Below, in pieces: positions 3,041 to 54,531 of a DNA stretch of 58,346 bases (the first letter of the stretch is position 1; every line of letters starts with the position of its first letter). A program made the translations under genes and the position numbers. Source of the DNA: a virus (lineage: Duplodnaviria > Caudoviricetes). The stretch is from IMG/VR virus record IMGVR_UViG_3300025769_000128, positions 1 to 58,346 of that record; one strand, written 5' to 3'. A model generated the notes under the pieces. It saw only the letters and a program-made list of their open reading frames with translations, did not search any database and had not been told where the DNA came from.

Positions 3041-3289
3041 ATGTCAGGATACGAAGTTATTAAAGGGAAAAATAAGTATGATCACTATGAAGTTCACATA
3101 CCTATAGAAGAAGTTGGTATTGTATATGGTTCATACGAAGTATGGGATAGGGACTCTGGTGGTTATGTGTTTTACGAAGAAGGCTCGTTGATCTTTGAAG
3201 ACGGCGAGTTGATCGACTATGATGGCATTGCCGAACTACCTGAGTCTATTATTAATGAAATAGCAAAAATTAGAAAAGTAAGTTTATGA
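3041..3289 (+). CDS. Hypothetical acidic protein (82 aa)
   Basis: ORF in operon. Confidence 0.75.
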   Translation: MSGYEVIKGKNKYDHYEVHIPIEEVGIVYGSYEVWDRDSGGYVFYEEGSLIFEDGELIDYDGIAELPESIINEIAKIRKVSL

Positions 3290-3789
3290 GAGCTTTAGCA
3301 GAAGAACTATACGAGCGTACTAAAGATATGATCAGTGATATTGCTTTCCATGTTATGGATGATCACCATATATCTCATAGCAAAGATCAAGTACTAGCTA
3401 GTATACTAAATGAGTATTATACACTATGGGATAAACCAGTTAAGCTTGAGTACAATCTTAATAATGCAAAAGAGCTGATCTCGCGCGTCGAAATAGATAA
3501 TGCCAATACATTACATAATAAAAAGTTATCAGACAAATCTAGGCTGTCTATTATTGTTCTATATCGCAGTACGTTAGCATATATATTCTATAAGCACTGG
3601 AACATGTCACAAACTCGTATTGGCAATCTATTTAATAGGGACAGAAGTACAGTAGCATATATGGTTTCAGCAACAGCAAATAACATATGGTATTATAATA
3701 AGCAAGATTGTTTTGAGCGTAGAGTTATTGAATACCTATTTGAAGAAGCTGGACTTGACTCACCATTCGATCCTATAAAGGTCAATTAA
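3286..3789 (+). CDS. Protein with DnaA domain-IV-like helix-turn-helix
   Basis: R..LAY...MSQTRIGNLFNRDRSTVAY resembles the DnaA C-terminal signature S..IG..F.RDH(S/T)TV. Confidence 0.65.
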   Translation: MRALAEELYERTKDMISDIAFHVMDDHHISHSKDQVLASILNEYYTLWDKPVKLEYNLNNAKELISRVEIDNANTLHNKKLSDKSRLSIIVLYRSTLAYIFYKHWNMSQTRIGNLFNRDRSTVAYMVSATANNIWYYNKQDCFERRVIEYLFEEAGLDSPFDPIKVN

Positions 3790-7385: not shown

Positions 7386-7998
7386 CAATAGAAATATGGA
7401 GTGGTTAAACAACCGTCGCATTATCTATGTGAAATATCCTTGGTATGATGAACCAACTAAGGTGTTTCCATGGGGATGGTACTATGAAGATGGTACACAT
7501 CAATGCTACGAGTTATTTAGATCTAAAGCTAAGATCACTACTATAAGATCGTTAAAGTGGCATATGTTAGTATTAAAATTTTTAAATAAAGATATTTCAT
7601 ATGATAAGTATTTAGAACTATGTTATTTCCTCATTGATAAAAGAAATAATTTTACCGCAATCACCATACCAAGTGATTTATTACTTAGATTTGCAAACGA
7701 GGTGTTTCAACACCAGTTTCATATGGCGCCTAAAAACAGGTTGCGTAAGGTAATATTTCGTATTGGTAGCGGTCTTACTATCGACGAAAAATTATCTATC
7801 GTAGGTAGTTTGATAGGAAGGTCTAAGCGGATCACTGAGGATGATATTTACCAATGCATGTTAGAGATTAACAACAAAGGAGATAAGATAACTATAAGTG
7901 GTATTGCTAAACTGTTAGGTTGTACACCTCGTACTATCCATAGAAATATGGGTGACGAACTTAAATTAGAGAAAGGTGTATTAAACCAACAGTTATGA
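7378..7998 (+). CDS. DNA-binding protein with C-terminal HTH (regulator or replication initiator)
   Basis: ITISGIAKLLGCTPRTIHRN HTH; ATG 7378 preferred to GTG 7339. Confidence 0.7.
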   Translation: MSHNRNMEWLNNRRIIYVKYPWYDEPTKVFPWGWYYEDGTHQCYELFRSKAKITTIRSLKWHMLVLKFLNKDISYDKYLELCYFLIDKRNNFTAITIPSDLLLRFANEVFQHQFHMAPKNRLRKVIFRIGSGLTIDEKLSIVGSLIGRSKRITEDDIYQCMLEINNKGDKITISGIAKLLGCTPRTIHRNMGDELKLEKGVLNQQL

Positions 7999-8738
7999 AA
8001 TATTACAATGTAAAAAACTATATAAGATATAAACAAGATATTGATGATCAACCGCATCCAAAAAGATATTGGCAAGATTATACAAGAGATGAACTAATAA
8101 TTAAATTCTTACCGCTAGTAGAAAGTATTGCTAGAAGCTTTGCGACTGGAGATCAAGCATCGGGTGTTATGAATATTGAAGATCTTATACAAGAAGGAAG
8201 TATTGGCCTTATTAAAGCTGTAGATAAATGGGATGTTGATTTTGCTTTATCAAAGCTCGACCCAGAAAAAAGTATTAAGAGTTTCTTTTCAAAGCGTATC
8301 AAGGGTGCAATACGAAGAGCTATTGATATAAACAGAGCTGGTATGCGTATACCAGAACACAAGATAAATGAGATACGCAACAGCGAAGATGAAGATCAAG
8401 AGAAAGTTCAAATGTTCTTTAATTCAATATTTAAAAGTATCGATGCTGATACAACTGGGGCTTATTATAATATTCCAGATTTAAATAAAGAATATCGTAT
8501 TGATATGATTAATAGCTTTTTACTTGGCCTCATGAAAATGGTGTTAGACCACAATGAATATCATGTTTTGAGACTAAGCTATGGATTAGACTGTCGTAAG
8601 CATTCAGCAAAAGAGATAGCATTCATAGTAGGTATTAAAGGAACAAGTTCGCATGTTAGAATATCTCAACTTAAAAAGCAAGCAATAAATAAAATATCTG
8701 AAAAAATAAAATTATCTCAAGTTATTGATTTCTTATAA
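7995..8738 (+). CDS. Phage sigma-70-family RNA polymerase sigma factor
   Basis: Region 2 (EDLIQEGSIGLIKAVDKWD, RIKGAIRRAI, MRIP) and region 4 HTH (VLRLSYGL, KEIA, RISQLKKQAINK). Confidence 0.9.
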   Translation: MKYYNVKNYIRYKQDIDDQPHPKRYWQDYTRDELIIKFLPLVESIARSFATGDQASGVMNIEDLIQEGSIGLIKAVDKWDVDFALSKLDPEKSIKSFFSKRIKGAIRRAIDINRAGMRIPEHKINEIRNSEDEDQEKVQMFFNSIFKSIDADTTGAYYNIPDLNKEYRIDMINSFLLGLMKMVLDHNEYHVLRLSYGLDCRKHSAKEIAFIVGIKGTSSHVRISQLKKQAINKISEKIKLSQVIDFL

Positions 8739-12073: not shown

Positions 12074-12340
12074 ATGCCTAAACTAAAAAAGCCAAGTATA
12101 ATGGGAAAATATTATCCAACTAGCCAAGAGCTAGATGCTGCTTTTTGGTGCATTAAAAATAACATACATATATCTCCGCTAAAGAAAAATTACAAAGATC
12201 AACTATGGTATATTGATATAATTATAAATGGTAAGTCAAGTAAAAGTCCTGAGACATTTGGTCCTAGTATTATTTGGCAAAAACTATATGAATACACATC
12301 TTACTACTATAATAAATATAAAAATGAAAACAATATTTAA
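12074..12340 (+). CDS. Hypothetical protein (88 aa)
   Basis: ORF in operon. Confidence 0.7.
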   Translation: MPKLKKPSIMGKYYPTSQELDAAFWCIKNNIHISPLKKNYKDQLWYIDIIINGKSSKSPETFGPSIIWQKLYEYTSYYYNKYKNENNI

Positions 12341-12968
12341 TAACGCAAACGAGGTATTTAATTATTACTTTGATCATATAGTTAATCATGGTGTAATATT
12401 CCAAAACACAAAAGCTTTATTTAACGTTGGTGTACATATTAATAACCCAATGGATAATCATATCACTTCTGATATGCGTAATTGGAAAAAAGAATATGCT
12501 CACTCTGAATGGTTGTGGTATTTAACTGGAGATAGAAATATAAAAACACTAGGTAATATATATGGTAAAATACCTAAGATCTGGAAGAAGATGGCTAATT
12601 CACAGGGTAATGTTAATTCTAATTATGGTTATCAATGGGAACGTAATGGTCAACTTGATAAAGTTGTTGATATGCTTAAGAAAAATAAAGAGACAAGGCA
12701 AGCATCAATATCAATATATGATGGTAAAGAAATATCAAAGTATAAGTATGATACGCCTTGCACATATGCGGTTAACTTTATAATATATAATAATAAGCTA
12801 AATATGTCTGTTATGATGCGATCTAACGATCTATGGTATGGCTTTTGTAATGATCAATATTGTTTCTCAATGCTACAAAAAACTGTAGCAGACCGTCTTG
12901 AAATGCCAGTTGGATGGTATTATCATTTTGTAAATAACATGCATCTATATGAACTCCAATTAACTTAA
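12324..12968 (+). CDS. Thymidylate-synthase-fold enzyme, dCMP hydroxymethylase (T4 gp42)-like
   Basis: PKIW, NSNYG, catalytic PC, MRSNDLWYGFCND, HLY; Asp at the base-specificity position. Confidence 0.75.
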   Translation: MKTIFNNANEVFNYYFDHIVNHGVIFQNTKALFNVGVHINNPMDNHITSDMRNWKKEYAHSEWLWYLTGDRNIKTLGNIYGKIPKIWKKMANSQGNVNSNYGYQWERNGQLDKVVDMLKKNKETRQASISIYDGKEISKYKYDTPCTYAVNFIIYNNKLNMSVMMRSNDLWYGFCNDQYCFSMLQKTVADRLEMPVGWYYHFVNNMHLYELQLT

Positions 12969-12974
12969 TTAAAC

Positions 12975-13748
12975 ATGTATTACATTTATCACATACCAGA
13001 TAAAAAGATTGGTGTAACCTGTGATTTATATAACCGGGTTACTTTACAACAAGGCTACTCTGAAGATGAATATGAAGTATTAGATTCATCAGAGGATATT
13101 GAATATATATCCGCAAAAGAGTTATATTTGCAAAGGGAATATGGATATAGAGTTGATCTTATTCCATATAAAGACCTCAAATCAAAACCTGAACAAATTA
13201 AATTTAATAAAATGAATGTCAACGTAACAGAGCAAACCACGACATTCCCTGTTCCAGTTAGAAAGCTTAAAGGCAGACTGATGGATAATATGGGTATGAA
13301 GTGGACTACATCTCACGGATCATTTGAAATAACACTGTCTACTATTGAGTGGATAATGTCTAATGTACACATGTCACAATTTAGTCAAGACAGATGTTAT
13401 GTATACAATAAAGCTTTTGCTGAATCAGTTAAAACAAATAAGATACACAATGACAATATATTTGAATTAATCAGAGACTGGGCAAAAGAGAGAGGTATAT
13501 ACGACAAAGGTGATGATCGTACTCAGTATGTTAAGTTGATGGAAGAAGCTGGTGAGTTAGCACAATCACTACTCAAGAACGATGAGCCAGAAATTAAAGA
13601 TGCTATCGGTGATATGGTTGTAGTTCTAACTAACCTAGCCCATATGCGAGGTTTTGATATTGAAGATTGTATTCATTCTGCATACGATGTAATATCAAAG
13701 AGAACAGGTAAAATGCAAAATGGTACATTTGTAAAAGACACATTATGA
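12975..13748 (+). CDS. MazG-like NTP pyrophosphohydrolase with N-terminal GIY-YIG-like region
   Basis: WAKERG, KLMEEAGELA, DAIGDMVVVL, AY..I..R.G; N-terminus YYIYH..KIGVT..L..R. Confidence 0.8.
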   Translation: MYYIYHIPDKKIGVTCDLYNRVTLQQGYSEDEYEVLDSSEDIEYISAKELYLQREYGYRVDLIPYKDLKSKPEQIKFNKMNVNVTEQTTTFPVPVRKLKGRLMDNMGMKWTTSHGSFEITLSTIEWIMSNVHMSQFSQDRCYVYNKAFAESVKTNKIHNDNIFELIRDWAKERGIYDKGDDRTQYVKLMEEAGELAQSLLKNDEPEIKDAIGDMVVVLTNLAHMRGFDIEDCIHSAYDVISKRTGKMQNGTFVKDTL

Positions 13749-14005
13749 TAACTAAAAAAATTAATTTCCGTGATCCAGTTGTTGAACGAGTCGTCGATAG
13801 ATTTATTTTACGATCAGACGAAGGTTACAAAAAATATGGTCAAACGCTTGATGAAGAGCGCGCGCAGGGCGTCAAAGGTCTCCAAGAATATATTAATGAT
13901 GTACAAGAGGAACTTATGGATGCGGTGTTGTACCTACAATCAGTACAAGAAGAAATACAAGATTTGAAAGAAGAGCTTTTAATTCTACGCGCTGAACAGA
14001 TGTAA
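13745..14005 (+). CDS. Small all-alpha NTP pyrophosphohydrolase-like protein
   Basis: RS..G.KKYG..LD and QEELMDAVLY (EExxD metal-binding motif). Confidence 0.6.
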   Translation: MITKKINFRDPVVERVVDRFILRSDEGYKKYGQTLDEERAQGVKGLQEYINDVQEELMDAVLYLQSVQEEIQDLKEELLILRAEQM

Positions 14006-14006
14006 T

Positions 14007-14459
14007 ATGAAGCGTAGTAAAAAACGAGGTCCAGTAAGGGCAAAGAAAGTTGTATATAATGGTATACAGTTTGCTTCTGGCCTTGAGAAATATATGTATA
14101 TTGCTTTACGTAAGCATAAGATTAAAGCTATTTATGAAGGTGAGACATACACCCTATTAGATGGCTTTAATTTTCAGAGCTCATGTTATGAGCGTCAATC
14201 CAATGGTAAAGGTGACATGATAGATAGAGGAAATAAAAAAATCCTTGGAATAAAATATACACCAGACTTTATTGGCGACGGATTTATAATTGAGTGTAAG
14301 GGTAGAGCAAATGAAAGCTTCCCAATGAGATGGAAGATGTTTAAAAAATATGTCAATGATAATTTAACTGGTGTCACACTATATAAACCACAGAATCAAA
14401 AAGAGTGTAATGCTGTTGTAGAACTAATAAAACAAAAAAGAAATGAATTGGGAGATTAG
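14007..14459 (+). CDS. T7 endonuclease I-like nuclease / Holliday junction resolvase
   Basis: FASGLE, YE, YTPDF, IIECKG. Confidence 0.8.
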   Translation: MKRSKKRGPVRAKKVVYNGIQFASGLEKYMYIALRKHKIKAIYEGETYTLLDGFNFQSSCYERQSNGKGDMIDRGNKKILGIKYTPDFIGDGFIIECKGRANESFPMRWKMFKKYVNDNLTGVTLYKPQNQKECNAVVELIKQKRNELGD

Positions 14460-15776: not shown

Positions 15777-17514
15777 AGGAGAAGATTACCCAGAGTGGGC
15801 AGAATCTGATATTTATAAAAAGACAATCAGTGGTGGATATTTATTAGAGGGCGAAACGCCGCGCGATGCTTATATGCGCGTTGCAAGGACCGTTGCGATG
15901 CATTTAGAACGCCCTGAGATGGCCGAAAAGTTTTTTGAATACGTCTGGAAGGGTTGGCTGTGTTTGGCGTCCCCCGTATTGTCTAATACAGGCACAACGC
16001 GTGGTTTGCCGATCAGTTGTTTCGGTATCGATGTCGCAGATTCAATAGCAGACATTGGAAGTAAAAACGATGTCGCAGATTCAATAGCAGACATTGGAAG
16101 TAAAAACCTTGAGATGATGTTGTTGGCTAAGCACGGTGGTGGTGTTGGTATTGGTATTAACCAAATCAGACCAGCTGGAGCAAACATTAAAAACAACGGT
16201 ACATCAGATGGTATTGTTCCATTTTGTAAGATATATGATTCAAGTATATTAGCTACAAACCAAGGATCAGTACGTCGCGGTGCTGCAAGCGTTAACTTAA
16301 ATATAGAGCATAAAGACTTTGAAGATTGGTTAGAGATTAGAGAACCTAAAGGCGATGTCAATCGACAGTCACTTAACTTACATCAATGTGCTATCGTTGG
16401 TGATAAGTTTATGCGTAAGCTTCTTGATGGGGATAAGGTAGCAAGAAGAAAATGGGGTAAGCTATTACAAAAGCGTAAAGCAACTGGTGAACCTTATATT
16501 ATGTACAAGGGTAATGTGAATAAGCAAAACCCTAATATGTATAAGAACAGCGGTCTAAAAGTACATATGACAAATATATGTTCTGAGATCGTTCTTCATA
16601 CAGATGAAAACCATAGCTTTGTTTGTTGTTTATCTTCTTTAAACCTAGCAAAGTATGATGAGTGGAAAGGTACAAACCTTATCTACGATGCAACTTGGTT
16701 TTTAGATGGAGTATTAGAAGAGTTTATACAAAAAGCAAAAGGTAAAATAGGATTTGAAAATTCAGTAAGATCAGCTGAGAAAGGTAGAGCTTTAGGTCTT
16801 GGTGTCCTTGGTTGGCACACGTATTTACAAAATAAAGGAATACCCTTTGAAGGATTATTAGCGCAATATGAAACTAGAAAGATATTTTCTCAAATTAAAA
16901 TCGAGACAGAGAGAGCGTCTATGGCGCTTGCAGAATCATTTGGTGAACCACTTTGGTGTGTTGGATCGGGCTTTAGAAATACTCATCTACGGGCCATTGC
17001 TCCTACTGTTAGTAATAGCAAACTTAGCGGTAACGTTTCTCCTGGTATTGAGCCTTGGGCTGCTAATGTTTTTACGGAACAAAGCGCGAAGGGTACATTT
17101 ATTCGTAAAAACCCTTCTTTAAAACAAGTTTTAGAAGATCTTGAATTAGACAATGAAGATATTTGGGATAGAATACTTGCAGACGGAGGATCAATACAAT
17201 ATATTGAGGAGCTTGATGATCATGTTATTGGTGATTGGGATATACCTGTTAAAGAAGTCTTTAAGACTTTTAAAGAGATTAATCAACTCGAAGTTGTTAA
17301 CCAAGCAGGTATTCGCCAGCAATACATTGATCAGAGTGTTTCGTTAAACTTAGCTTTCCCAGCGGATACAGATCCCAAGTTTATTAATAAAGTACACCTT
17401 GATGCTTGGAAAAAAGGTATCAAGACATTATACTATGTAAGAACTGAATCTGTGCTCCGCGGAGATATTGCTAAGAAAGTAACAGATGAAAACTGTTTAA
17501 GTTGTGATGGATAA
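15754..17514 (+). CDS. nrdA: Class I ribonucleotide reductase alpha subunit, no ATP cone
   Basis: ASPVLSN, PISCF, GGGVG, TNICSE, AIAPT..S, IDQSVS, KTLYY, C-terminal CLSC. Confidence 0.95.
   Translation: MASNRWIKGEDYPEWAESDIYKKTISGGYLLEGETPRDAYMRVARTVAMHLERPEMAEKFFEYVWKGWLCLASPVLSNTGTTRGLPISCFGIDVADSIADIGSKNDVADSIADIGSKNLEMMLLAKHGGGVGIGINQIRPAGANIKNNGTSDGIVPFCKIYDSSILATNQGSVRRGAASVNLNIEHKDFEDWLEIREPKGDVNRQSLNLHQCAIVGDKFMRKLLDGDKVARRKWGKLLQKRKATGEPYIMYKGNVNKQNPNMYKNSGLKVHMTNICSEIVLHTDENHSFVCCLSSLNLAKYDEWKGTNLIYDATWFLDGVLEEFIQKAKGKIGFENSVRSAEKGRALGLGVLGWHTYLQNKGIPFEGLLAQYETRKIFSQIKIETERASMALAESFGEPLWCVGSGFRNTHLRAIAPTVSNSKLSGNVSPGIEPWAANVFTEQSAKGTFIRKNPSLKQVLEDLELDNEDIWDRILADGGSIQYIEELDDHVIGDWDIPVKEVFKTFKEINQLEVVNQAGIRQQYIDQSVSLNLAFPADTDPKFINKVHLDAWKKGIKTLYYVRTESVLRGDIAKKVTDENCLSCDG
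16029..16106. repeat. 39-bp perfect tandem duplication in nrdA
   Basis: DVADSIADIGSKN x2 just after the active-site Cys. Confidence 0.92.
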
Positions 17515-17632: not shown

Positions 17633-20600
17633 TTAATCTTCTGAAAACCTATTAAAATAATCTCTTGAATAATCTTCATTTCCATATTGATTAGTCAAAG
17701 GTCTTGTGTGACCTTTTTTCTTTTCATTGTCTACACCTAGCTGCCATGCTTCCCAACCTCCAAGCATAAAAATTCTTTGCCACATTTCCATTTCGTCACT
17801 CATAGCGCCTTCAATGTTATTATATTTAATAACTATACGATCTAGGGGTACGTTTGTTATTGCTGTAAATACTTTTGCTGTTGGCAAAACATATGGATCA
17901 TTTGGGCTAAATCCTTCACTAAATGGATCATCATATACTCCACGATCCGCTGAAAATAAAGCGCTACGTATTTTACTTATTTTAGAATCTATTGGAGGGG
18001 CTATATTAAATAATTCAAATATTGCTCTTTCATATTCACCTCTTTGACCCATCTTCTTTTTTCTATGTTCTTTGTATATCTTAAGCGCAACGTCTTTTAA
18101 CATGGCTGCAGTTGCGCCATATATACCCAAACCTCTAAGTATACTATTAGCCATACCATTAGCAACATCTAACTGCTTATTATATTGTTCTTCGTCATCA
18201 TCTTCAGCATCAGATCCAAACATCATTGCAAAAACGGCCTGCTGTATAGTGTTGAATATTAAGTTTTGAATAAAGGTATAATACAGTATTTTAGATGCGT
18301 TTGTTTTCCAATCGCCTCGATTATTGATTAAATCTAATGCAGCCTTTTTGGTTAATCTAGCATACTGCATTGATGTATTAGCAAAGTTCAATATAACGCG
18401 ACCAGCCGCGCTAGCTTGCTCCATGCTTATTTTATCGGTCCTACTTGATTGTTGGCTTTCTTCTGATAGATCTGCAAAGTCATTATAAGCTTTCTCTTCT
18501 GCTTCTTTTTGAGATAAACCTTCTTTTAAATAAGTTTTTACTCTATTTCTATAAAAAGTAGCACCACCAGTTGCTATTGCAATGCTATCAGCAATTTGTG
18601 TTGGAACATATCCTTTCTTTAAAAGCAGACTTATAAGTTTACTTACTTTGTTTTTAGACGTTTTAGCAATGTCTGCAAGTTCGGCTTCGCTTACGTTTAT
18701 TTTTAATCCCTTTCTTCTTGCTACTAAATAATTAGAATTCATTAGCATTCTTACGTCGCTCCAATATTGCTTTTGATTAGCAAACGCAGCACCAGCTTTT
18801 AAAGGATTATTATCTGTCCAATTTATAAAGTTTATATTAGATATTAACTGAAGTAAAGCTGATCTTGTATTAAAGAACATTATTGCAGCCGTACTACCAT
18901 TTAAATAATCAAATACTTTACTTGTTATATCATTTTTGTATGGTCTATTTCTACCATCTTTCATTCTCTGAAGAGAATCTTCAAGCGCTATTCTGTAACT
19001 TAAACCATACAAAAATTCTAACTTATTTAAGTTTTGTTCAGTAAAAATTTGATCAGCGTTTTCTTGCCATTGTTGCATATATTTTTGTCTAAGTTCACCT
19101 TTTGTGTACCTATACATATCATTAGCAACAGAACCACCTATCCAATTAACACTAGGTTTAGTGTATTCCTTGGATTTCATTAGTTTCATTATACCTTTTG
19201 CAAGTATTAAAAGAGATTGATCGTTTTCAACTAGTTTAATATTTTCCTTTAATTGATTTCCACTTAAACCAGGTACTTCGTATCCAGCTTTATTAAACAT
19301 CCATATACGCATAGATTGCTCATTGGTAAAGCCAGTTGGATTTTTCTTTTCAAGATACTGTGGTCTAACCTTGATTCTCTTTTTTAGCTCTTTGTAATCT
19401 TTAGACATCTGTACAGTAGACTCATCGATTGCTCTTTCTCCAAGAGAAAATGGATCGAAAAGATGTTTTTTATAAAACTTTTTAGCTTGCTCACCCTGTT
19501 CTCCTTTTGGCAATGTGTACCATAAAAGACCAGCAAAATCATCAGCACTTGGTGGTATCCAAAATCTATATCTAGGTTTTTGCTTAGATTTTATTCTAGC
19601 TTCTGCTGTAGATATTTGCTTATTAAAACGAATACCATGCTTGCGCTGTAAAATAACATTAAAATCTTTACTTAAATCTAAGCCTTTAGATGCCTTTAAT
19701 TTTACGCTTGTTAATTCTTCGTCTCGTTTTTGGAATTCATATAATAATACATCATTTGGCAAACTAGAAGCATTTTTAATACCTATTTTACTAGCTGTTT
19801 TATCGTTTATTTTTTTACCAGCCTCCGTAACGCGCGTGTATTCATTATCAACTCCCCCTGATGCAAAGAGTTTATTTTTAGTATCAACGGGTATTGTTTT
19901 ATGTGGCTTATCTTGTTTATCCCACCAATTATCTATACTTCCTACAGACTCTCCTGTTTCTGCAACTTGTTTTCCTAGATTTTTAAGTTCATTTTGACTT
20001 GGAACGCCGCCCTCATTCAAGAAGTATATGTAATCCTCCGGTCTCATTACTTCATCTGTATCAACATTTTCTATTACTAATCCGCCTCTTTTAACGTTGT
20101 AATAAATATCAAATACTTCACCATAATAGTTTTCACCCTGCTGTAGATATATGAAATCTTTATTTTCTACAAAAGCAGCTTTTGAACCTACTCCTAAACT
20201 TATAATCTTACCATTTTTAAATACTGCAACTTTGTAGTTTCCGTATTTATCCCAAATATTACGATTAACCTTACCGTCTTTTTTAGCTGTAATACACCAT
20301 GGACTTGTTTTTTTACCAAGATGTGATTCAACTATATCAGCCAAGTCATCTTGACCCTGCTCAGAGTTATCAACATCGTATAAAACTATATCACTGTTAT
20401 CTGGTAACTCTCTCTTATTAGTTAAGGTACTAACTTCATCTGGATTAATATAAGCTTTCTTTACCGTTTCACCAAATTCGTTAATTAATTCAGTAGGATT
20501 AGGGTATGATCTTGGATCAATACCTTTTATCGATGCTATTCGTTCTGCTTCAATAATTTTATAACCATCTTCTGGCAATATAAAACCAGGCTGATACATA

Positions 20601-23600
20601 TAGAACAAAGCGAGTTCTTCAAACTTCTTTTTCTTTTGGTCAGGTATATTAGTTGTATCTAACCAATTAAATATACTTTCAACTTGATTTTTTATTTGAT
20701 CTGGTGTTAAATCATATCTTCGTTTAGCTAATGTTTTTTCATACCTAATTTGATCACCTCTAGACGAGAACAACTTTACTGCCTGTTGTTTTCGTGGCAT
20801 GAGATCCTTAACAATATCACTTTCTTTAACTACTAATTCCGGTAAACCAGCCTCTTTCATCGCTTTTTTTACCTCTTTATTATTATATCTAACCATCCAA
20901 CCTCCTTCTGGAACGGTATCTTTGTAATATTTGTTTACAATATCATGCGCTTTAGATGAAATAATAGAAACTCTATAATTATTTAGTATATCATCAAATG
21001 ATTTATTGGTCTTACCATTAATATATTTTAATAATTCAGTTATAACGACTCTAGCGGGTAATGAATGTTCATAAACAAATTCTTCGTCTGTCTTTGGTTT
21101 TTTACCTTCAGCAAAGTCTTGAAAAAATCCAGGTATTGCAGCTGTTCTAACGAGTGAATTAACATTGGCATTAAACGTCATCATTATCATACCGACGTCG
21201 TTATTCGTTATTTTGCCATTGTCTCTTAGTTCTATTAATTTATCAATTATAAGTTTTAACCCTTTTCTTTGATCTAAAGCAAATTCAACTCTTTCTTCTA
21301 ATTCCTCTACAAACTTACCATCAACATAGCCTTTAGCGCTTTGCTTATTAATTATCCCAGTTAACGTGTTATAAGGTTTATTATTAAAAGAAACAAATTG
21401 TTGCCCTGAAACATATTTTGCATTCATTGACTTAGGTACAATACTATTAAAGAAGTCTTTTCTACCAGTCGTTAAAAAATATCTTAATGTCTTTAAATTT
21501 GTTTCAGGATCTTCTACAATGCTAATAAAATCATTTGTTTTAGCATCGTATAGATATTGCTTACCTAACACACCCCATTGATTACTTATTGTAGGTAAAA
21601 TATATTTAACTATTTGATCTGGTGTTAACGATAAAGTTAATTCAGATAAAGCAGATCTAGCTGATTTTAATTGATTTGTATTTGTAAAATCTAAATCAGA
21701 TTTTTTAAGATCTAATATTTTCCTATAATCAGGTCGCTCTGTTAAACCTTGAGATGCCATTAAAGGAGACTTTCCAGCAGCAATATTGCTTACATATACT
21801 CTATATTCTGGTTGTTTAGATAATTCATCTCTTACCACTTTATTTGTAACAAGTCTACCAATTAATTCCATCATGCCTTTAATATTCTGACCTGTTGGCG
21901 TTCTTGGATCACTATTTACGATATTACCATCTTTGTCAAACCCTAAAGCATTAGCAATGTCTTCTTTACTTAATGTTTCTTTTTTAACCCATTCAGGTAA
22001 ACCAGCTGGTGTTTTTACTCTTTCTAATTTATCGTAAAATAATTTTAATAAATTATTAGGCATACCAGTTGAAATACCAATTAATTCATCAGATATGTCT
22101 TGTTCTACCTTTCCTTTTGTCCTTGCTTCTATGTCTGTAGTTGTAGATGGAACTGTAGCAAATGGTAATAAATCAAGTATATTTTTAAAACCTATTTCTT
22201 TAAAAATATTTTGAGCTGATACCATTTCTTTACCATTAAGATTTAATTTTTTATCTTCTATTGCTTTTTGTCTTACATTAAACAAGTTAGCAGTTGATTC
22301 AAAATCTAAATTTCTTAATGAATTAAATGTTAACTCACTTAATTCTAAATCATTGATTTTTGACGTTATATTTGATATAGTTTGTTCTTTGTCAAAATTA
22401 GGTACATTTGGTATTACGTTTAACGGATTGATTAATTCTGGTGTTGCATCAATTCGTTGTTCTCTTCTAATTTCAGCGTTAGCACTTAGATCTTGCATAT
22501 CAAATGCGTCTTGATCTTGTTCTTCTCTAAATTCTACGGCATATCTTTGAAGTTCATTTGTTGATCTAATTTCTAAACCAGATAACTGTGGGTATTTATT
22601 TTTTATAACATCAAGTATTTTTTCATTGATGTATTTATTGATATATGCGTTTATAGGTGTTCTACCATCGTAGCTTTCAATTAATCCTTTTATAGATTGA
22701 CTTGGTCTCGCCGTTGTACCAAGCATCGCGTCTAAAACTATATTTGATTTTTCATCTTCAAATTGCTCGTTTAATCTATAACCAGAAAAACGCTCCGATG
22801 TGTTTAATCTTCTTTCTATTTCATTTTCCCAAAATCTAGCGATAATGGTTGAACCATCTTTTCCAAGAGCGTCGTATACAGTTTGTGTTTTTTCATATAT
22901 ATTGTTACCAGCTATATTTTCAATTTCAGCTAATACTTTTCTTGGCTCTCTAATACCATCTTCTTTTATTCTTTGAAGCGTTTCAGGTTTATCTTTAAAC
23001 TTTTCTAAAAGATTATTGTATTCTTCTTTTTCTTTATTGTATTGTTCTTTTAATCTTTCTTTAACTTCATTTAGTTTAATTAAACTTTGCTCAGACAATG
23101 GTTGCATACCAATAGAAGCACTTAATCTTTCTTCATCAGCTTCATCTGGCAATATCATTTTTAAAGCCTGCTCTTTAGTTTTCTTTTGAAAACTAGAGAT
23201 ATAACTGTATAAATCTTCACCAGTTTGAATATGATTGAAATCATTTGATTCACCTAAAAAGAATTCATTGATTTGATTTACAACTGTTTTTAATTGAAAC
23301 AATGTATTAAAATTACTTCTACTTAAAATATTAGTAGCAATCAAATCGTTAACTATAGTAATTAATTCTTCGTTTTTATTATATGCTGATTCGTATGATT
23401 TTTTTCTATTTTGAAAATACTCGTATTGTTTTTCAGTTATTTCTCTATCTTCTCTTTTTTGAGCAATAATATTATCAAGTCCAATTATTGCTTGATTCAT
23501 AGATTTAACAATGTTTTCTTCTGTTATTCTATTACTCTTATTATATAGATGTAATAACTCATGTAGTGGAGTTACAGCCGCTGAATAAGCGTCAAATTCA

Positions 23601-26600
23601 TTATTTGAACCATGTATTCTTGATGCAATATTATCTTCAAATACAACTATAAAGTCTTTACCAGTAACACCGTTGTTTCCAGTAAGTCTTTGTCCATTTT
23701 TTACTCCACCATAATAATTGCTGAATAATTCATCAACTATGTTTTCTGAATTATCATTCAAAGCATCTACAGCAAATCGCTTAAGTCTGTTTCTTATTTC
23801 TTCTTCATTTTTAAGATCACTTAAATCTAATTTGAAGTATTTAAAATTCTTATTTTTATATTTAGCATGTTCAACAATGTCAGAATAAAATTGAAATAAA
23901 GAAACAGCTCTAGCTGATTGGGCTGGGTTTAATGCACCCGCTTTTTCAGCAGCTTTTATTTTATTCTGCATATCTTTACTAGCGAAACTGTTATGCATGT
24001 CATAAAGTTCCTTATACTCATCTTGCAATTGTTGAGCATATTTTATGCCTTGTTTTGACGTATCACCACTTTGAGCTTGCTTTTGTATTTCTCTTATTTT
24101 AGCTCGTTTTTTTCTTGCTAATTCAAAAATAGTATTTAAATTGTTTGTACCATTTTCTTCATCGTCACGCATTATGTTATTAATACGCTGTATTGTTATA
24201 GCGTTATCTATACTAGCTTGCCTTATTATTTCTATTTTTCTTTTTTTAGCATCAGAAAGTTCTATTGGTGATAATTGTCCAGATCTTATTTTAGCTTCAA
24301 TAGAGATTAATTCATTCCTAAGGTTAGCCATTTGTCTTTTTTCATCAGAAGTTGCAATTTCTTCTCTTACAAAAGAAAAAACATTAGCAGCTGATCCAGG
24401 ACCTTGTATTGCTAAACTTGTAATTCCTACATTTGCAATAAAATCTTTATCTACACCGTCAAATAATTGTTTATCAGCGTCAAATAAAGCTATATCAACA
24501 AAATTGTGTCCTAGTTGAGTACCAATTTCTTCTAATTCTTCAATAGCCACGTTATATGCTACACCAGTTGGACCATATAAAATCTTTTTAAGCGAAGAAC
24601 CACCTCTATTGAAAAATCTATTACCGTTTTGTATATACCTAAGTGTACCAAATTTTTCAGCATAAGAAGCTATACCACCATACATTAACGCGGTAAAACC
24701 CTTTTTCATCATACCTGCATTTAAAAGATTTTGCAGCTCATTTATTTGCCTTTCGATTGCTAATCTTTCTGCTGGTGTTTTAGCTAACTTTAATGATTCT
24801 TCTAACTCTGGTATAATTAACGATGCATTTCTTTGAGATATTTCTAATTCTGATAATTTATCGCCAGCTTCCATTGTAAAAAACGCAGCTTGCGCTAATC
24901 TTGAAGCTGCTTTTTGTGCGGCCATTCTACCACTAGCAGCCCCAATTCCAGTTAAGCCACCAGTACCAATTGTAGAAAGTACAACTGCTATAGATGGGGA
25001 GTTATTAGCAAGAACTTGACTTATATAATTGTAAGCGCTAACATCATCTGACCAAAAATCATCAGTGCTGTAGTTTTTTACAAAATCTTCTGATAGTTCT
25101 TTATCTAATGCTAAGTTGTAGTTAATAGCATCGGTATATAGATTATCAATCGCATCAGAAAAACCAGTTGGTTTTACAAAGTCCCCACTGGTTTCATCTA
25201 TTGAATTTATAATATCTGCAGACAACTTTAATGCGCCAGCTCCTAATATAAATGCGCTACCAGCAAATGATTTTTCAAATTGAAGTAATGCTCTGTTTAT
25301 AGCACTATAATCTCTATTAGTTGCATCTATAACGAACGAAATATCATCAAGTGTACCAGCCTCTGAACTTATTTGTTGTGCTCTATCTTTAATTGAATTT
25401 GACTCTTTTTCTAATGTACTATATAATTCGAAAACGCCAGCATCGTTTAATTTTTTATTTAACACTTCATATTCAGAATACAAAGCATTATACTCTTCTT
25501 GAGTACTAGTTTGCTTATCAAAATTAAGTAATTGATCAGATATTTCAGCACGTCTAGCAACGTCAACGCTATATTTATCGTTAAACTCTTTTATTGACGA
25601 CTCTAAATTATTTGCATCATTTTCTAGAATATCAAAGTTTGCTTTTATTTTTGCTTTTTGATTTTCTATATATTTTTGTTTGGTTTTAGTTGGAAGATTA
25701 TCTGTTAAACCATACGCATATAATGTTTCTATAGAAGGTGTGTATGTTTTTCCTTCTAAAACGGTTTCTTCTAATAATGGTCTACCCGTTTTCTTGTAGA
25801 AAGCATTTTCATCAATTTTACCTTTAGCATCTTGCAACGCTAGTTCGGCATCGTATTCACCATTAGTATATCTGTTAAGTAGTTTTCTTTGTTCTCTACT
25901 TAAATTACTTTCGTATATTTGTGAAGCAGATTCTTTAACATTTGCTATAGATTTTTCTACATCTCTTGGATATAAACTTGAAGCAATATCCATGTCTATT
26001 GTACCATCTTTTTTATATGTGGTATATAAACCAAAAAGATCATCACCAAGATGTTCTTTTAATTGCTCATCAGTAGGTTGTATTTTTACCGCTTTATACA
26101 TTGGTTCACCTCCAGCACCCATGTATTGTATGGTTTCATAATCATATTGAAAATCTTTTAAAGCCTCTTCAAATTTATTTTTAGCAAAATCTTCTTTAAC
26201 TTTATCGTTATTTTTATCTATTTGCTTTAATTTTTCATGCAGCTCTAAATTAAGTTCTTTACCTTCTTCTGAGTAAACTTCCTCGATTTCAATAACAGGT
26301 TGTTCTGGTAATTCTCTAGCATTTTTACCAAAGGCTTTTATATACTCATCTACACTACCATATCCACCTTTTTTATAAACATCAGAATTTATAATATCAC
26401 TTTCAGTAAAAACACGAGTATCCATCTTGCCTTTAGATGGATTCCATCTATTTATTTCAAAAGCCTTTTCTGTTTTTCCAATTTTTGACTGTTGATTTGA
26501 TAAGTCTTCTGATAAATCTGTGGAAACGCTTGGCTGCTGAGATTCTTCTGGTGCCGCAGTCACAGCCGCAGTATCGACACCCTGTTGCTTTCCCAATATG

Positions 26601-26773
26601 AGAGCTTTAAAGTCTTCTTTTTGATCAGCATAACCATCTCTCTTAAACAAATCATAAGCGTAATCAAAAGCGTCGTTATTTGTTTGTATTAAAGACTTAA
26701 AATCATCTATAGAATCTGTATAACCGTCTTTTTTAAAAAGTTCATAAGCGTAGTTGAAAGCTTCTTCATTCAT
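17633..26773 (-). CDS. Giant internal virion / ejected polyvalent protein (3046 aa)
   Basis: Last gene of the structural arm; HELLH zincin motif, SPWCIT motif, helical and hydrophobic C-terminus. Confidence 0.7.
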   Translation of the reverse strand: MNEEAFNYAYELFKKDGYTDSIDDFKSLIQTNNDAFDYAYDLFKRDGYADQKEDFKALILGKQQGVDTAAVTAAPEESQQPSVSTDLSEDLSNQQSKIGKTEKAFEINRWNPSKGKMDTRVFTESDIINSDVYKKGGYGSVDEYIKAFGKNARELPEQPVIEIEEVYSEEGKELNLELHEKLKQIDKNNDKVKEDFAKNKFEEALKDFQYDYETIQYMGAGGEPMYKAVKIQPTDEQLKEHLGDDLFGLYTTYKKDGTIDMDIASSLYPRDVEKSIANVKESASQIYESNLSREQRKLLNRYTNGEYDAELALQDAKGKIDENAFYKKTGRPLLEETVLEGKTYTPSIETLYAYGLTDNLPTKTKQKYIENQKAKIKANFDILENDANNLESSIKEFNDKYSVDVARRAEISDQLLNFDKQTSTQEEYNALYSEYEVLNKKLNDAGVFELYSTLEKESNSIKDRAQQISSEAGTLDDISFVIDATNRDYSAINRALLQFEKSFAGSAFILGAGALKLSADIINSIDETSGDFVKPTGFSDAIDNLYTDAINYNLALDKELSEDFVKNYSTDDFWSDDVSAYNYISQVLANNSPSIAVVLSTIGTGGLTGIGAASGRMAAQKAASRLAQAAFFTMEAGDKLSELEISQRNASLIIPELEESLKLAKTPAERLAIERQINELQNLLNAGMMKKGFTALMYGGIASYAEKFGTLRYIQNGNRFFNRGGSSLKKILYGPTGVAYNVAIEELEEIGTQLGHNFVDIALFDADKQLFDGVDKDFIANVGITSLAIQGPGSAANVFSFVREEIATSDEKRQMANLRNELISIEAKIRSGQLSPIELSDAKKRKIEIIRQASIDNAITIQRINNIMRDDEENGTNNLNTIFELARKKRAKIREIQKQAQSGDTSKQGIKYAQQLQDEYKELYDMHNSFASKDMQNKIKAAEKAGALNPAQSARAVSLFQFYSDIVEHAKYKNKNFKYFKLDLSDLKNEEEIRNRLKRFAVDALNDNSENIVDELFSNYYGGVKNGQRLTGNNGVTGKDFIVVFEDNIASRIHGSNNEFDAYSAAVTPLHELLHLYNKSNRITEENIVKSMNQAIIGLDNIIAQKREDREITEKQYEYFQNRKKSYESAYNKNEELITIVNDLIATNILSRSNFNTLFQLKTVVNQINEFFLGESNDFNHIQTGEDLYSYISSFQKKTKEQALKMILPDEADEERLSASIGMQPLSEQSLIKLNEVKERLKEQYNKEKEEYNNLLEKFKDKPETLQRIKEDGIREPRKVLAEIENIAGNNIYEKTQTVYDALGKDGSTIIARFWENEIERRLNTSERFSGYRLNEQFEDEKSNIVLDAMLGTTARPSQSIKGLIESYDGRTPINAYINKYINEKILDVIKNKYPQLSGLEIRSTNELQRYAVEFREEQDQDAFDMQDLSANAEIRREQRIDATPELINPLNVIPNVPNFDKEQTISNITSKINDLELSELTFNSLRNLDFESTANLFNVRQKAIEDKKLNLNGKEMVSAQNIFKEIGFKNILDLLPFATVPSTTTDIEARTKGKVEQDISDELIGISTGMPNNLLKLFYDKLERVKTPAGLPEWVKKETLSKEDIANALGFDKDGNIVNSDPRTPTGQNIKGMMELIGRLVTNKVVRDELSKQPEYRVYVSNIAAGKSPLMASQGLTERPDYRKILDLKKSDLDFTNTNQLKSARSALSELTLSLTPDQIVKYILPTISNQWGVLGKQYLYDAKTNDFISIVEDPETNLKTLRYFLTTGRKDFFNSIVPKSMNAKYVSGQQFVSFNNKPYNTLTGIINKQSAKGYVDGKFVEELEERVEFALDQRKGLKLIIDKLIELRDNGKITNNDVGMIMMTFNANVNSLVRTAAIPGFFQDFAEGKKPKTDEEFVYEHSLPARVVITELLKYINGKTNKSFDDILNNYRVSIISSKAHDIVNKYYKDTVPEGGWMVRYNNKEVKKAMKEAGLPELVVKESDIVKDLMPRKQQAVKLFSSRGDQIRYEKTLAKRRYDLTPDQIKNQVESIFNWLDTTNIPDQKKKKFEELALFYMYQPGFILPEDGYKIIEAERIASIKGIDPRSYPNPTELINEFGETVKKAYINPDEVSTLTNKRELPDNSDIVLYDVDNSEQGQDDLADIVESHLGKKTSPWCITAKKDGKVNRNIWDKYGNYKVAVFKNGKIISLGVGSKAAFVENKDFIYLQQGENYYGEVFDIYYNVKRGGLVIENVDTDEVMRPEDYIYFLNEGGVPSQNELKNLGKQVAETGESVGSIDNWWDKQDKPHKTIPVDTKNKLFASGGVDNEYTRVTEAGKKINDKTASKIGIKNASSLPNDVLLYEFQKRDEELTSVKLKASKGLDLSKDFNVILQRKHGIRFNKQISTAEARIKSKQKPRYRFWIPPSADDFAGLLWYTLPKGEQGEQAKKFYKKHLFDPFSLGERAIDESTVQMSKDYKELKKRIKVRPQYLEKKNPTGFTNEQSMRIWMFNKAGYEVPGLSGNQLKENIKLVENDQSLLILAKGIMKLMKSKEYTKPSVNWIGGSVANDMYRYTKGELRQKYMQQWQENADQIFTEQNLNKLEFLYGLSYRIALEDSLQRMKDGRNRPYKNDITSKVFDYLNGSTAAIMFFNTRSALLQLISNINFINWTDNNPLKAGAAFANQKQYWSDVRMLMNSNYLVARRKGLKINVSEAELADIAKTSKNKVSKLISLLLKKGYVPTQIADSIAIATGGATFYRNRVKTYLKEGLSQKEAEEKAYNDFADLSEESQQSSRTDKISMEQASAAGRVILNFANTSMQYARLTKKAALDLINNRGDWKTNASKILYYTFIQNLIFNTIQQAVFAMMFGSDAEDDDEEQYNKQLDVANGMANSILRGLGIYGATAAMLKDVALKIYKEHRKKKMGQRGEYERAIFELFNIAPPIDSKISKIRSALFSADRGVYDDPFSEGFSPNDPYVLPTAKVFTAITNVPLDRIVIKYNNIEGAMSDEMEMWQRIFMLGGWEAWQLGVDNEKKKGHTRPLTNQYGNEDYSRDYFNRFSED

Positions 26774-45566: not shown

Positions 45567-45850
45567 TATTTTTTAGATCTCTTCTCTGCGAACCCAGTGA
45601 ACACTGCTTCTTTCTTTTCCTCTTCTTCTGGTTTACCACCTTCAAGTGCTAAGTTCTCCTCTTCAATGCGCTTTAGTATTTCAAAGGCATCGAATATTGC
45701 GAGTTTCTTTGTAGCAGCGGCATTTTTAAGTCTATCAGCAGATACATCTTCATCGGTATCTACTATTGGTTCTTTAGCTACCTTGATTAATTCATCAACT
45801 GCCACTCGTCCAGCTTGGATTATATTCTTGCGTGTTTCTTTTGTTTCCAT
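45566..45850 (-). CDS. Candidate terminase small subunit
   Basis: Small helical protein directly upstream of terL with TAATG coupling. Confidence 0.5.
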   Translation of the reverse strand: METKETRKNIIQAGRVAVDELIKVAKEPIVDTDEDVSADRLKNAAATKKLAIFDAFEILKRIEEENLALEGGKPEEEEKKEAVFTGFAEKRSKK

Positions 45851-46394
45851 GAGAAAGAACAATATTATTAGATTTCATACAATATAAAAGCTTGCCATCA
45901 AAAATAAACTCAAATTCTGAGTCAGGTGTAAAGCAAACTAGATCACCTTCATTAATGTCTAAAGACTTATTACCGTATATTAAAATACCATGTAATGGCT
46001 TTTCAATATTTGTGGTATTGTCGTCTGCTTTAATTGGTTGAACAAAACAATAATCTTGATATGTCTTCCAATCACCATCTATATTTTTATAAGCATATAT
46101 TTGCTCTTGAGAGACAGCATACATACCGTTAAACATGTAACTTCTACTGTCTTTTTCGTTGCCCCTAACATCGTAGAATCTTCTAAACACATTATGATGC
46201 ACTATGACCTCATTTCCCGGCTCTAGATTAGTTTCTATTGCCTTTGGTGTAGCAATGATCTCAGCGTGTCTATTAACGTTTCTAAATGACTCTATTCGCG
46301 TATTAGTTACAAAGTCTTTACCAGCTAGTTTTTTAGTATTGTTATACCTTTCACCAATTGGTTTTACTATAAAATCGTACAGACTATTCATCAA
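45795..46394 (-). CDS. Tandem GroES-like domain protein
   Basis: Two GroES-like units: FIVKP...PG..VIVHH and FVQP...G..IYG....EGDLV.F....E.E...DG..LY.M....I. Confidence 0.6.
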   Translation of the reverse strand: MMNSLYDFIVKPIGERYNNTKKLAGKDFVTNTRIESFRNVNRHAEIIATPKAIETNLEPGNEVIVHHNVFRRFYDVRGNEKDSRSYMFNGMYAVSQEQIYAYKNIDGDWKTYQDYCFVQPIKADDNTTNIEKPLHGILIYGNKSLDINEGDLVCFTPDSEFEFIFDGKLLYCMKSNNIVLSHGNKRNTQEYNPSWTSGS

Positions 46395-54274: not shown

Positions 54275-54531
54275 AATACAACTACAATATCAAACTCTTT
54301 TATGATTTTATAAATTGTACCATCGATTTCAAGATCAAAGCCTGCGTGTCTGTCATAATATATTCTCTCTCCAGAGCCTACACCATTAACATCATCACCA
54401 ACTTCAACCACGGTAGCTTCTCTATATCTTATATCTTCTCGATGTTTTTTACCAAGTTCAAAACCACTTTTGGTCTTTACATGACCCTCTTTTGTAGGAT
54501 CAATGATTACATACTTACCTATCACCCTCAT
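54271..54531 (-). CDS. groES: Co-chaperonin GroES
   Basis: KTKSG, ATVVEVGD.V, G.RIYY...AG, IIKE.DIVVVL. Confidence 0.85.
   Translation of the reverse strand: MRVIGKYVIIDPTKEGHVKTKSGFELGKKHREDIRYREATVVEVGDDVNGVGSGERIYYDRHAGFDLEIDGTIYKIIKEFDIVVVL

Follow-up and report, generated by a model that had tools for sequence, protein, structure and literature searches.

A predicted two-gene cassette for 5-hydroxymethylcytosine in the genome of an uncultured podovirus

Introduction

The modification of a base in phage DNA is, as a principle, textbook knowledge from T4, and at the level of protein domains it has a precedent in MetaGPA, in which viral contigs with modified cytosine, taken from sewage and coastal water, were enriched for thymidylate synthase (TS) homologues with Asp at position 177, and TS co-occurred with PF01503 in DNA resisting enzymatic deamination (PMC8670742). 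In the DNA of the Enterococcus phage VPE25, the cytosines resist bisulfite conversion (PMC4999554). Here we describe the IMG/VR viral record IMGVR_UViG_3300025769_000128, whose 58,346 bases were analysed as a whole and are called the window below. At 12324-13748 it carries two neighbouring genes, encoding a short TS-fold enzyme and a protein with a MazG domain, which lead us to propose that the DNA of this phage probably holds 5-hydroxymethylcytosine (5hmC).

Three positions of the TS fold have a published diagnostic value. As described in PMC13326640, the change of E. coli Asn177 to Asp goes with deoxycytidine monophosphate (dCMP) as substrate, a rule that is also given in PMC8670742; a bulky residue at position 143 accompanies a methyl product, and an acidic one (Asp or Glu), as in T4 and in MilA, a hydroxymethyl product; finally, Asn in place of Asp169 marks the flavin-dependent 5-hydroxy-dCMP synthases such as RB69 gp48, all the tested ones having Asn (PMC13326640).

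Results

A short relative of thymidylate synthase

The first gene of the pair is the following:

12324..12968, + strand: short TS-fold enzyme of 214 amino acids (aa), predicted dCMP 5-hydroxymethylase, from PF00303 and Protein Data Bank (PDB) matches

The ATG at 12324 agrees with the N-termini of the homologues, and the stop is at 12968. The product matches PF00303 with an E-value of 1.4e-25, its residues 52-212 lying on profile positions 48-214 of 266; since positions 215-266 are uncovered, the enzyme lacks the final fifth of a typical TS. This short form is genuine, and close homologues of 213-223 aa, with 65-92% identity, occupy the best 120 of 8000 protein matches. The enzyme shows the motifs PKIW...NSNYG and MRSNDLWYGFCND. 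Among PDB sequences it matches MilA (E 1.3e-15), T4 dCMP hydroxymethylase (4.8e-15) and one TS, 6auj (4.5e-15), while the E. coli TS chains score about 2e-10. The NCBIfam ThyA equivalog models, whose cut-offs are 108-427 bits, stayed at 72 bits or below, the best score being 72.4 bits for a model whose cut-off is 327. It had been guessed that annotation pipelines would label such a gene thyA: JGI does call close homologues 'thymidylate synthase', but the homologues of Bacteroides phages were deposited as dCMP hydroxymethyltransferase.

Active-site residues and phylogenetic placement

The residues on which the prediction of substrate and product depends are encoded as follows:

12750..12752, + strand: Asp143 (Cys146 minus 3, the position of E. 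coli Leu143), acidic as in the rule for a hydroxymethyl product
12759..12761, + strand: catalytic Cys146, an invariant alignment column, Cys in 118 of 119 representatives
12828..12830, + strand: Asp169, retained (Asn in flavin-type 5-hydroxy-dCMP synthases), from the alignment and the rule in PMC13326640
12852..12854, + strand: Asp177, the pyrimidine-specificity position (Asn in ThyA), 11 residues after Arg166

In HMMER alignments, Asp177 faces the Asp of T4 dCMP hydroxymethylase MRSNDVVFGFRND and that of the CMP hydroxymethylase MilA MRANDAFRGAVSD, and a thymidylate synthase has Asn QRSADVFLGVPFN opposite to it. Thus, the original prediction, made from the letters of this DNA, was right in placing an Asp where ThyA has Asn, 11 residues past the Arg, as both the alignments and the codon at 12852-12854 attest, and the PKIW and NSNYG that it held in common with T4 dCMP hydroxymethylase were found on the T4 PDB chain.

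To count residues we used 119 representatives, namely those of the best 150 rows with at least 190 aa, 31 shorter ones having been set aside, together with 26 copies referred to as group 1 and 68 distinct copies from the window's own lineage. The latter was taken as the best 80 of at least 280 relatives, in one viral collection, of the family of an 86-aa open reading frame (ORF) lying downstream. Asp177 is present in 119/119 representatives, 26/26 group-1 copies and 68/68 lineage copies, and because the same Asp recurs in all of them it is not a chance match. Asp143 is found in the window, in T4 gp42, in the ViI and VPE25 enzymes, in all lineage and group-1 copies (68/68 and 26/26) and in 115 of the 119 representatives; Asp169 in the window and again throughout (68/68, 26/26 and 119/119). 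All three residues occur together in each of the 68 lineage and 26 group-1 copies. At positions 143, 169 and 177 E. coli ThyA has Leu, Asp and Asn, and the enzyme of ViI, a phage that makes 5-hydroxymethyl-uracil, has Asp, Asp and Asn. With Asp at all three diagnostic positions, the window enzyme reads as a hydroxymethylase of the T4 or MilA type. The alternatives '5hmC or 5mC' (5-methylcytosine) had been left side by side in the original prediction; its cytosine type stands, and Asp143 with the retained Asp169 favours 5hmC over both 5mC and 5-hydroxycytosine. Canonical ThyA was rejected as an identity for the enzyme, which has Asp177 instead of Asn177, lacks the C-terminal segment (profile 215-266) and misses the equivalog cut-offs.

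A quick maximum-likelihood tree, including ThyA and T4 gp42 as had been suggested beforehand, was built on 144 rows (7 references, 119 representatives, 10 group-1 copies and 8 lineage copies). ThyA and ViI, which are of the Asn type, lie on one side and every Asp-type row on the other. The window falls in a clade of 60 rows (Shimodaira-Hasegawa-like approximate likelihood ratio, SH-aLRT, 96), neighbour to a clade of 20 rows with T4 gp42, the joint 80 rows having a support of 89 under a midpoint root. The branches of T4 (1.79), ThyA and ViI are long and, with such a root, the tree is to be read as a placement and not as a proof.

A MazG domain fused to two further domains

The second gene and its domains are the following:

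12975..13748, + strand: three-domain protein of 257 aa (GIY-YIG/T5orf172-like, middle alpha/beta, MazG), predicted to be the partner clearing deoxycytidine triphosphate (dCTP), from Pfam MazG and PRA-PH
12975..13169, + strand: N-terminal GIY-YIG/T5orf172-like domain, about residues 1-65, from sub-threshold matches of homologues and predicted topology
13452..13745, + strand: MazG domain, about residues 160-257, from PF03819 and Foldseek

The MazG-type pyrophosphatase that had been claimed here was recovered by PF03819 at residues 187-243 (E 3e-7, 31.1 bits, cut-off 22), and PF01503 passes as well (22.8 bits, cut-off 21.3). In the AlphaFold2 (AF2) model (pLDDT 87.8), residues 2-56 are arranged as strand-strand-helix-strand-helix, residues 88-158 form an alpha/beta middle part and residues 162-240 a helical bundle. 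Foldseek against the PDB matched the MazG part only, to 1vmg, human DCTPP1 7mu5 and mouse dCTPase 2oie/6sqw/6sqz, with a probability of 1.00 (1vmg, 7mu5, 2oie), E-values of 0.009-0.05 and target-normalised TM values of 0.60-0.75. On the grounds of sequence and modelled fold, the C-terminal part of ORF 12975-13748 is a member of the MazG / all-alpha nucleoside triphosphate (NTP) pyrophosphatase superfamily.

The full 257-aa architecture was found as a single match in 73 of the 80 lineage loci; in the others the protein is in two pieces (2 loci), cut by the locus end (4) or absent from a locus that starts further on (1). In the two loci with pieces, L101 and L108, these match residues 2-149 and 112-255 and may represent either a split protein or an insertion. 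In an alignment of 30 copies, drawn from 60 stop-free ones after 11 copies were dropped because the extension of their coordinates crossed a stop, the N-terminal and middle blocks are conserved and are followed by a linker whose length varies and then by the MazG domain. A recent homing-endonuclease read-through was considered as the origin of the fusion and rejected in view of the full-length form in 73/80 loci and of the variable-length linker. T4 SegF has no similarity to the window MazG protein.

The N-terminal domain was more elusive. The GIY-YIG-like character given to it in the original prediction agrees with an Atlas feature score of 0.97, obtained to clusters of which only 11-12% of the members carry T5orf172, and with sub-threshold matches of the homologues to T5orf172 (13/30, best E 0.0014) and MUG113 (9/30); the window's own copy, instead, has no Pfam match at E-values up to 1. 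It also has no match among PDB sequences, and PHROGs returned weak 'endonuclease' matches in 3/30 homologues. Its invariant residues in the alignment are Y2, Y5, H6, K11, G13, R21 and E49. The reference fold of GIY-YIG proteins is a strand-strand-helix-strand-helix core with conserved Tyr, Arg and Glu, and the predicted topology together with the invariant Y5, K11-G13, R21 and E49 would fit it; the domain is only tentatively placed in the GIY-YIG superfamily.

Conservation in the lineage and recurrence in other phages

The 80 lineage loci are syntenic with the window and lie on contigs mostly of 30-79 kb, with a few short fragments. The enzyme is encoded in 74 of them, the remaining six having a truncated left flank, and the MazG protein in 79. 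In one locus (L063:956-1492), the gene of a 179-aa protein of the sulfotransferase family (PF03567, E 6.2e-10) separates the TS-like gene from the MazG fusion gene, which hints at a possible sulfated derivative of hydroxymethylcytosine.

When viral contigs were scanned with the enzyme, 27 loci were obtained, 26 at 52-62% identity and one (L035) in which a 41-residue end fragment matches at 68%. Apart from the enzyme and MazG, only four window genes have matches there, all of them weak and scattered, in 1-3 loci each. In 26 of the 27 a free-standing MazG gene of 100 aa, upstream or downstream, adjoins the enzyme gene or lies one small ORF away; these MazG genes are 54-66% identical to about residues 160-257 of ORF 12975-13748, and the 26 loci span roughly nine gene contexts, with either gene order.

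The cassette in these phages (L009-L034) is modular, with a DUF6378 gene, an exchangeable middle and then MazG and the TS-like gene. The DUF6378 gene (PF19905, E 3.1e-13; about 90 aa) was found in 22/27 loci; as a relative of MazG it was rejected (hhalign probability 0.3%). The middle is occupied by an S-adenosylmethionine (SAM) methyltransferase gene in 10 loci, by a T4 beta-glucosyltransferase-like gene in 5 (PF09198, E 1.6e-12), by a 639-aa glycosyltransferase-like gene with a weak MGDG_synth match in 5, and by nothing in 5; the glycosyltransferase-like gene is accompanied by a gene resembling pyridoxal phosphate (PLP) enzymes, which was found in 6 loci (34.7 bits, cut-off 35). Since a glucosyltransferase needs a hydroxyl acceptor, a hydroxymethyl product is supported for the homologues at 55-56% identity. 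A literature search found no paper joining dCMP hydroxymethylase, MazG and phage, and one for 5-hydroxymethylcytosine in Cellulophaga phages returned only papers on library preparation.

Palindrome counts in the lineage and in relatives without the cassette

The large terminase of the window is 62% identical to that of the uncultured podovirus record MW202828 and 46% to that of the Flavobacterium 'elemo' phages, its matches also including Cellulophaga phages; from these relatives the window is fairly described as a Bacteroidota podovirus, as had been claimed. The enzyme and the MazG protein have no match in the elemo phage or in the 42 kb of MW202828 searched, the whole MW202828 record gave no match to the enzyme, and the whole elemo record contains no TS-like gene.

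Observed palindrome counts were compared with a Markov expectation. In MW202828 (42 kb) GATC occurs 0 times against 126 expected and CCGG 0 against 21, and in elemoA (33 kb) the counts are 28 against 98 for GATC, 0 against 6.5 for CCGG, 0 against 13 for GGCC and 1 against 75 for CATG. By contrast, the window has 247 GATC (218 expected), 14 CCGG (26), 33 GGCC (35) and 131 CATG (188), and the 80 lineage loci pooled have 2675 GATC (2392) and 391 CCGG (396); none of the 72 lineage loci with enough expected sites falls below 0.3 of the GATC expectation. The avoidance of GATC and CCGG in two relatives devoid of the cassette, and not in the lineage of the window, fits with a protection by base modification. 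GATATC is depleted in the window (1 against 21), in the pooled lineage (115 against 272), in the group-1 loci (18 against 58) and in the elemo phage (1 against 14.5), but not in MW202828 (15 against 16).

Limits of the cassette and genome context

Two genes follow the MazG fusion:

13745..14005, + strand: 86-aa helical protein, a backbone gene probably outside the cassette, without Pfam, PDB or fold match
14007..14459, + strand: DUF1064 nuclease (PHROG 'Holliday junction resolvase'), a backbone gene, from PF06356 (E 5e-8) and phrog_190 (E 1e-14)

The original prediction had seen in the first of them a second pyrophosphatase with an EExxD motif and in the second a nuclease resembling T7 endonuclease I that would degrade host DNA, and neither of these assignments was supported. 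The 86-aa ORF has 2466 homologues but no Pfam family; its PDB profile search gave nothing under E 0.4, and its AF2 model (pLDDT 71.6, a helical hairpin) found no structural match, the best Foldseek E-value being 9.5. A MazG pyrophosphatase is unsupported for it (hhalign probability 0.6%), and so is a relationship with DUF6378 (12% over 20 columns), a short LxDAVxY motif being the only link to MazG/DUF6378 in the profile comparison. As for the nuclease, Phage_endo_I (PF05367) scores 14.6 bits against a cut-off of 29.1 and DUF1064 33.8 against 24.7; no link to host-DNA degradation was found, the DUF1064 gene being part of a common replication backbone, and it is present in 78/80 lineage loci. 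Since the elemo phage, devoid of TS, encodes homologues of the 86-aa ORF (39% identity, E 5e-12) and of the nuclease (40% identity), and not the enzyme or the MazG protein, the cassette proper is 12324-13748.

Ribonucleotide reductase (RNR) had also been noticed downstream, correctly, both its small and large chains being present; its class I form occurs in only 16/80 lineage loci, and 54 have instead a protein of about 620 aa with class II RNR domains. The large-chain gene of the window contains a perfect in-frame tandem duplication of 39 bp at 16029-16107, by which 13 residues DVADSIADIGSKN are doubled directly behind the conserved SCFGI loop; the unit is single in each of the 16 lineage relatives that carry this gene, and the duplication is either a very recent event or an assembly artefact.

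The + strand up to 17.5 kb forms a replication and nucleotide module, and the remainder lies on the - strand, with genes for a 3046-aa protein, virion proteins, portal, large terminase, GroES/GroEL and endolysin. Two features of the module concern a possible dependence on the host:

3286-3789, + strand: small protein with the DnaA C-terminal helix-turn-helix (HTH), PF08299, E 3.3e-8
7995-8738, + strand: match to the PHROG of RNA polymerase sigma factors, E 6.2e-23

The DnaA-type HTH protein and a primase-helicase suggest use of the host replicase by the phage and, considered together with the sigma-factor-like protein and the lack of a DNA polymerase among the genes found, a reliance on the replication and transcription machinery of the host. 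The GroES-like and GroEL-like chaperonins (45795-46394 and 54515-56062, - strand; phrog_13932, E 1.4e-20, and phrog_5725, E 4.5e-133) are a further trait of the genome, GroEL being common to the window, MW202828 and the elemo phages. The 3046-aa protein is a single ORF (17633-26773, - strand) making up 16% of the genome, and the sole annotation of its MW202828 counterpart is a spurious 'reticulocyte binding' label. A DNA search of the 7-kb region against a phage collection gave no match.

Discussion

From the fold, the active-site residues, the gene linkage and the conservation shown above we infer, with fairly good confidence, the substrate and the product of the enzyme, the specificity of the MazG domain and the extent to which cytosine would be replaced. 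The enzyme would accept dCMP by means of Asp177 and attach to it, through Cys146, the one-carbon unit of methylene-tetrahydrofolate; with Asp143 and no closing C-terminal segment, water and not hydride would end the reaction, giving 5-hydroxymethyl-dCMP. The MazG domain most likely hydrolyses dCTP to dCMP, which would both feed the enzyme and bar ordinary cytosine from the phage DNA. As the record holds no deoxynucleoside monophosphate (dNMP) kinase or DNA polymerase, host kinases and the host replicase would then have to make and use hydroxymethyl-dCTP and, as it holds no transferase gene, the end product is most likely plain 5hmC, which would blunt host restriction. Of the T4 scheme envisaged in the original prediction, the cytosine-type TS relative and MazG as its conserved partner remain, without support for a second pyrophosphatase or for a nuclease degrading host DNA.

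Several observations weigh against this proposal. Overall similarity fails to split the classes, the thymidylate synthase 6auj scoring level with T4 dCMP hydroxymethylase, and the contrast in palindromes involves two comparator phages only, whose hosts are not identified. MazG domains of the window type occur in 1164 phage records, and for many MazG-bearing phages, for instance those of S. thermophilus, we know of no modification, so that MazG alone is not diagnostic. Moreover, hhalign finds no sequence relation between T4 gp56 and the window MazG (probability 1.4%). T4 needs its gp1 kinase, and six-frame family searches of the record detected neither a thymidylate-kinase-type dNMP kinase nor a DNA polymerase A or B. 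In the remaining ORFs, Pfam and PHROG revealed no kinase, glycosyltransferase, DNA polymerase or dCMP deaminase, and the absence of glycosyltransferase and dNMP kinase noted from the start is thus upheld within the reach of these searches. The T4 beta-glucosyltransferase model found no match in the record, nor in any control genome, hence its silence is a weak negative; in addition, with a completeness estimate of about 91%, genes not found may sit beyond the ends of the record. In PMC13326640, the rule on Leu143 is only a correlation, and a clear incorporation of the modified base required a phage kinase.

The lack of these functions bears above all on the possibility that the enzyme is active and cytosine replacement is partial or absent, no adapted kinase or polymerase being there, or that the pair mainly rebalances the pyrimidine pools. 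In agreement with it, the genes recognised include no dNMP kinase, DNA polymerase, dCMP deaminase or transferase, and TS homologues expressed alone gave only traces of modified base (PMC13326640). On the other hand, virtually all lineage loci whose flank is long enough retain the pair, as do about nine other phage contexts, and the lineage does not show the avoidance of GATC or CCGG seen in the two relatives without the cassette. We regard this outcome as unlikely. About as unlikely is that the enzyme acts as a dCMP methyltransferase, giving DNA with 5mC as in the Xanthomonas phage Xp12. Asp177 by itself converts TS to a dCMP methylase (as cited in PMC8670742), and the window has no transferase that would require a hydroxyl. 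Instead, position 143 is Asp and not a bulky hydrophobic residue in the window and in every lineage copy, the Xp12 type being judged here by the residue rule alone, and homologues at 55-56% identity adjoin a T4 beta-glucosyltransferase-like gene. Moreover, the C-terminal segment, which in TS closes the active site for hydride transfer, is absent. Finally, a flavin-dependent 5-hydroxy-dCMP synthase similar to RB69 gp48, a dUMP (deoxyuridine monophosphate) hydroxymethylase or an ordinary thymidylate synthase would share the TS fold and the catalytic Cys, and Asp177 with an acidic residue at 143 is also found in enzymes of the RB69 type (PMC13326640), but all three are very improbable, given that Asp169 is kept throughout where the tested 5-hydroxy-dCMP synthases have Asn, that Asp177 speaks against dUMP substrates and that the ThyA equivalog models miss their cut-offs by a wide margin.

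Returning to the proposed synthesis of 5hmC, the fusion invites a bolder idea, which we put forward as a speculation with little chance of being right: one GIY-YIG-MazG chain could both remove dCTP and nick or degrade unmodified cytosine-containing DNA of the host or of competitors, sparing the hydroxymethylated DNA of the phage and forming, with the 214-aa enzyme, a two-gene kit for full replacement of cytosine by 5hmC with host kinases and replicase only. T4 divides these two proposed roles between gp56 and endonuclease II, itself a GIY-YIG enzyme, and the fusion would unite them.

If the proposal is true, a large and common lineage of uncultured phages (30-79 kb) related to podoviruses of Flavobacteria modifies its cytosine with two dedicated genes, without a polymerase or nucleotide kinase of its own, illustrating how small a base-replacement pathway can be. 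The reading of marine viromes would be affected, because restriction, deamination and nanopore base-calling respond to modified cytosine, and the understanding of host defences against these phages would be too. The swappable middle genes (SAM methyltransferase, glycosyltransferase-like with PLP-enzyme-like, beta-glucosyltransferase-like and one sulfotransferase) point to candidate derivatives of hydroxymethylcytosine.

Comparison with known systems

The window enzyme resembles T4 gp42 (PDB 1b49/1b5e) in the TS fold, the catalytic Cys followed by Thr, Asp177, Asp143, Asp169, PKIW and NSNYG, and both are partnered by an NTP pyrophosphatase, in T4 the dCTPase gp56. They differ in that gp42 has about 25% identity to it, belongs to a separate, neighbouring clade and is 246 aa long, whereas the window enzyme has 214 aa and ends just 5 residues past the HLY motif; the window MazG, unlike gp56, is fused to two extra domains, and no gp1-type kinase, glucosyltransferase or phage polymerase like those of T4 was found. 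The gp56-type dCTPases of RB69 and DLP3 have Foldseek matches to 7mu5, 6sqz and 5ie9 (PMC13326640), and the window MazG domain matches the same entries 7mu5 and 6sqz.

The closest deposited phage homologues are the 'deoxycytidylate 5-hydroxymethyltransferases' of the Bacteroides phages BF486P2 and BF503P1, with 47-48% identity over the whole length, a similarly short size (226 aa) and the same active-site marks. These phages differ in having two TS-like genes and an annotated dut gene, and the 18.6 kb examined contain no MazG homologue of the window type. The TS homologue of VPE25, 35% identical, also has Asp177, Asp143 and Asp169; however, it is 281 aa long, its neighbours are annotated as dUTPase and beta-glucosyltransferase instead of MazG, and the phage is a siphovirus of a Gram-positive host. 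With the MetaGPA contigs the window has in common that the same two Pfam domains travel together, as its MazG passes PF01503; that study, as described in PMC8670742, was conducted at the level of domains and followed a carbamoyltransferase branch. Judged by its sequences against these systems, the cassette at 12324-13748 is a credible candidate for a 5-hydroxymethylcytosine pathway, of a kind already known and pared down to two genes.

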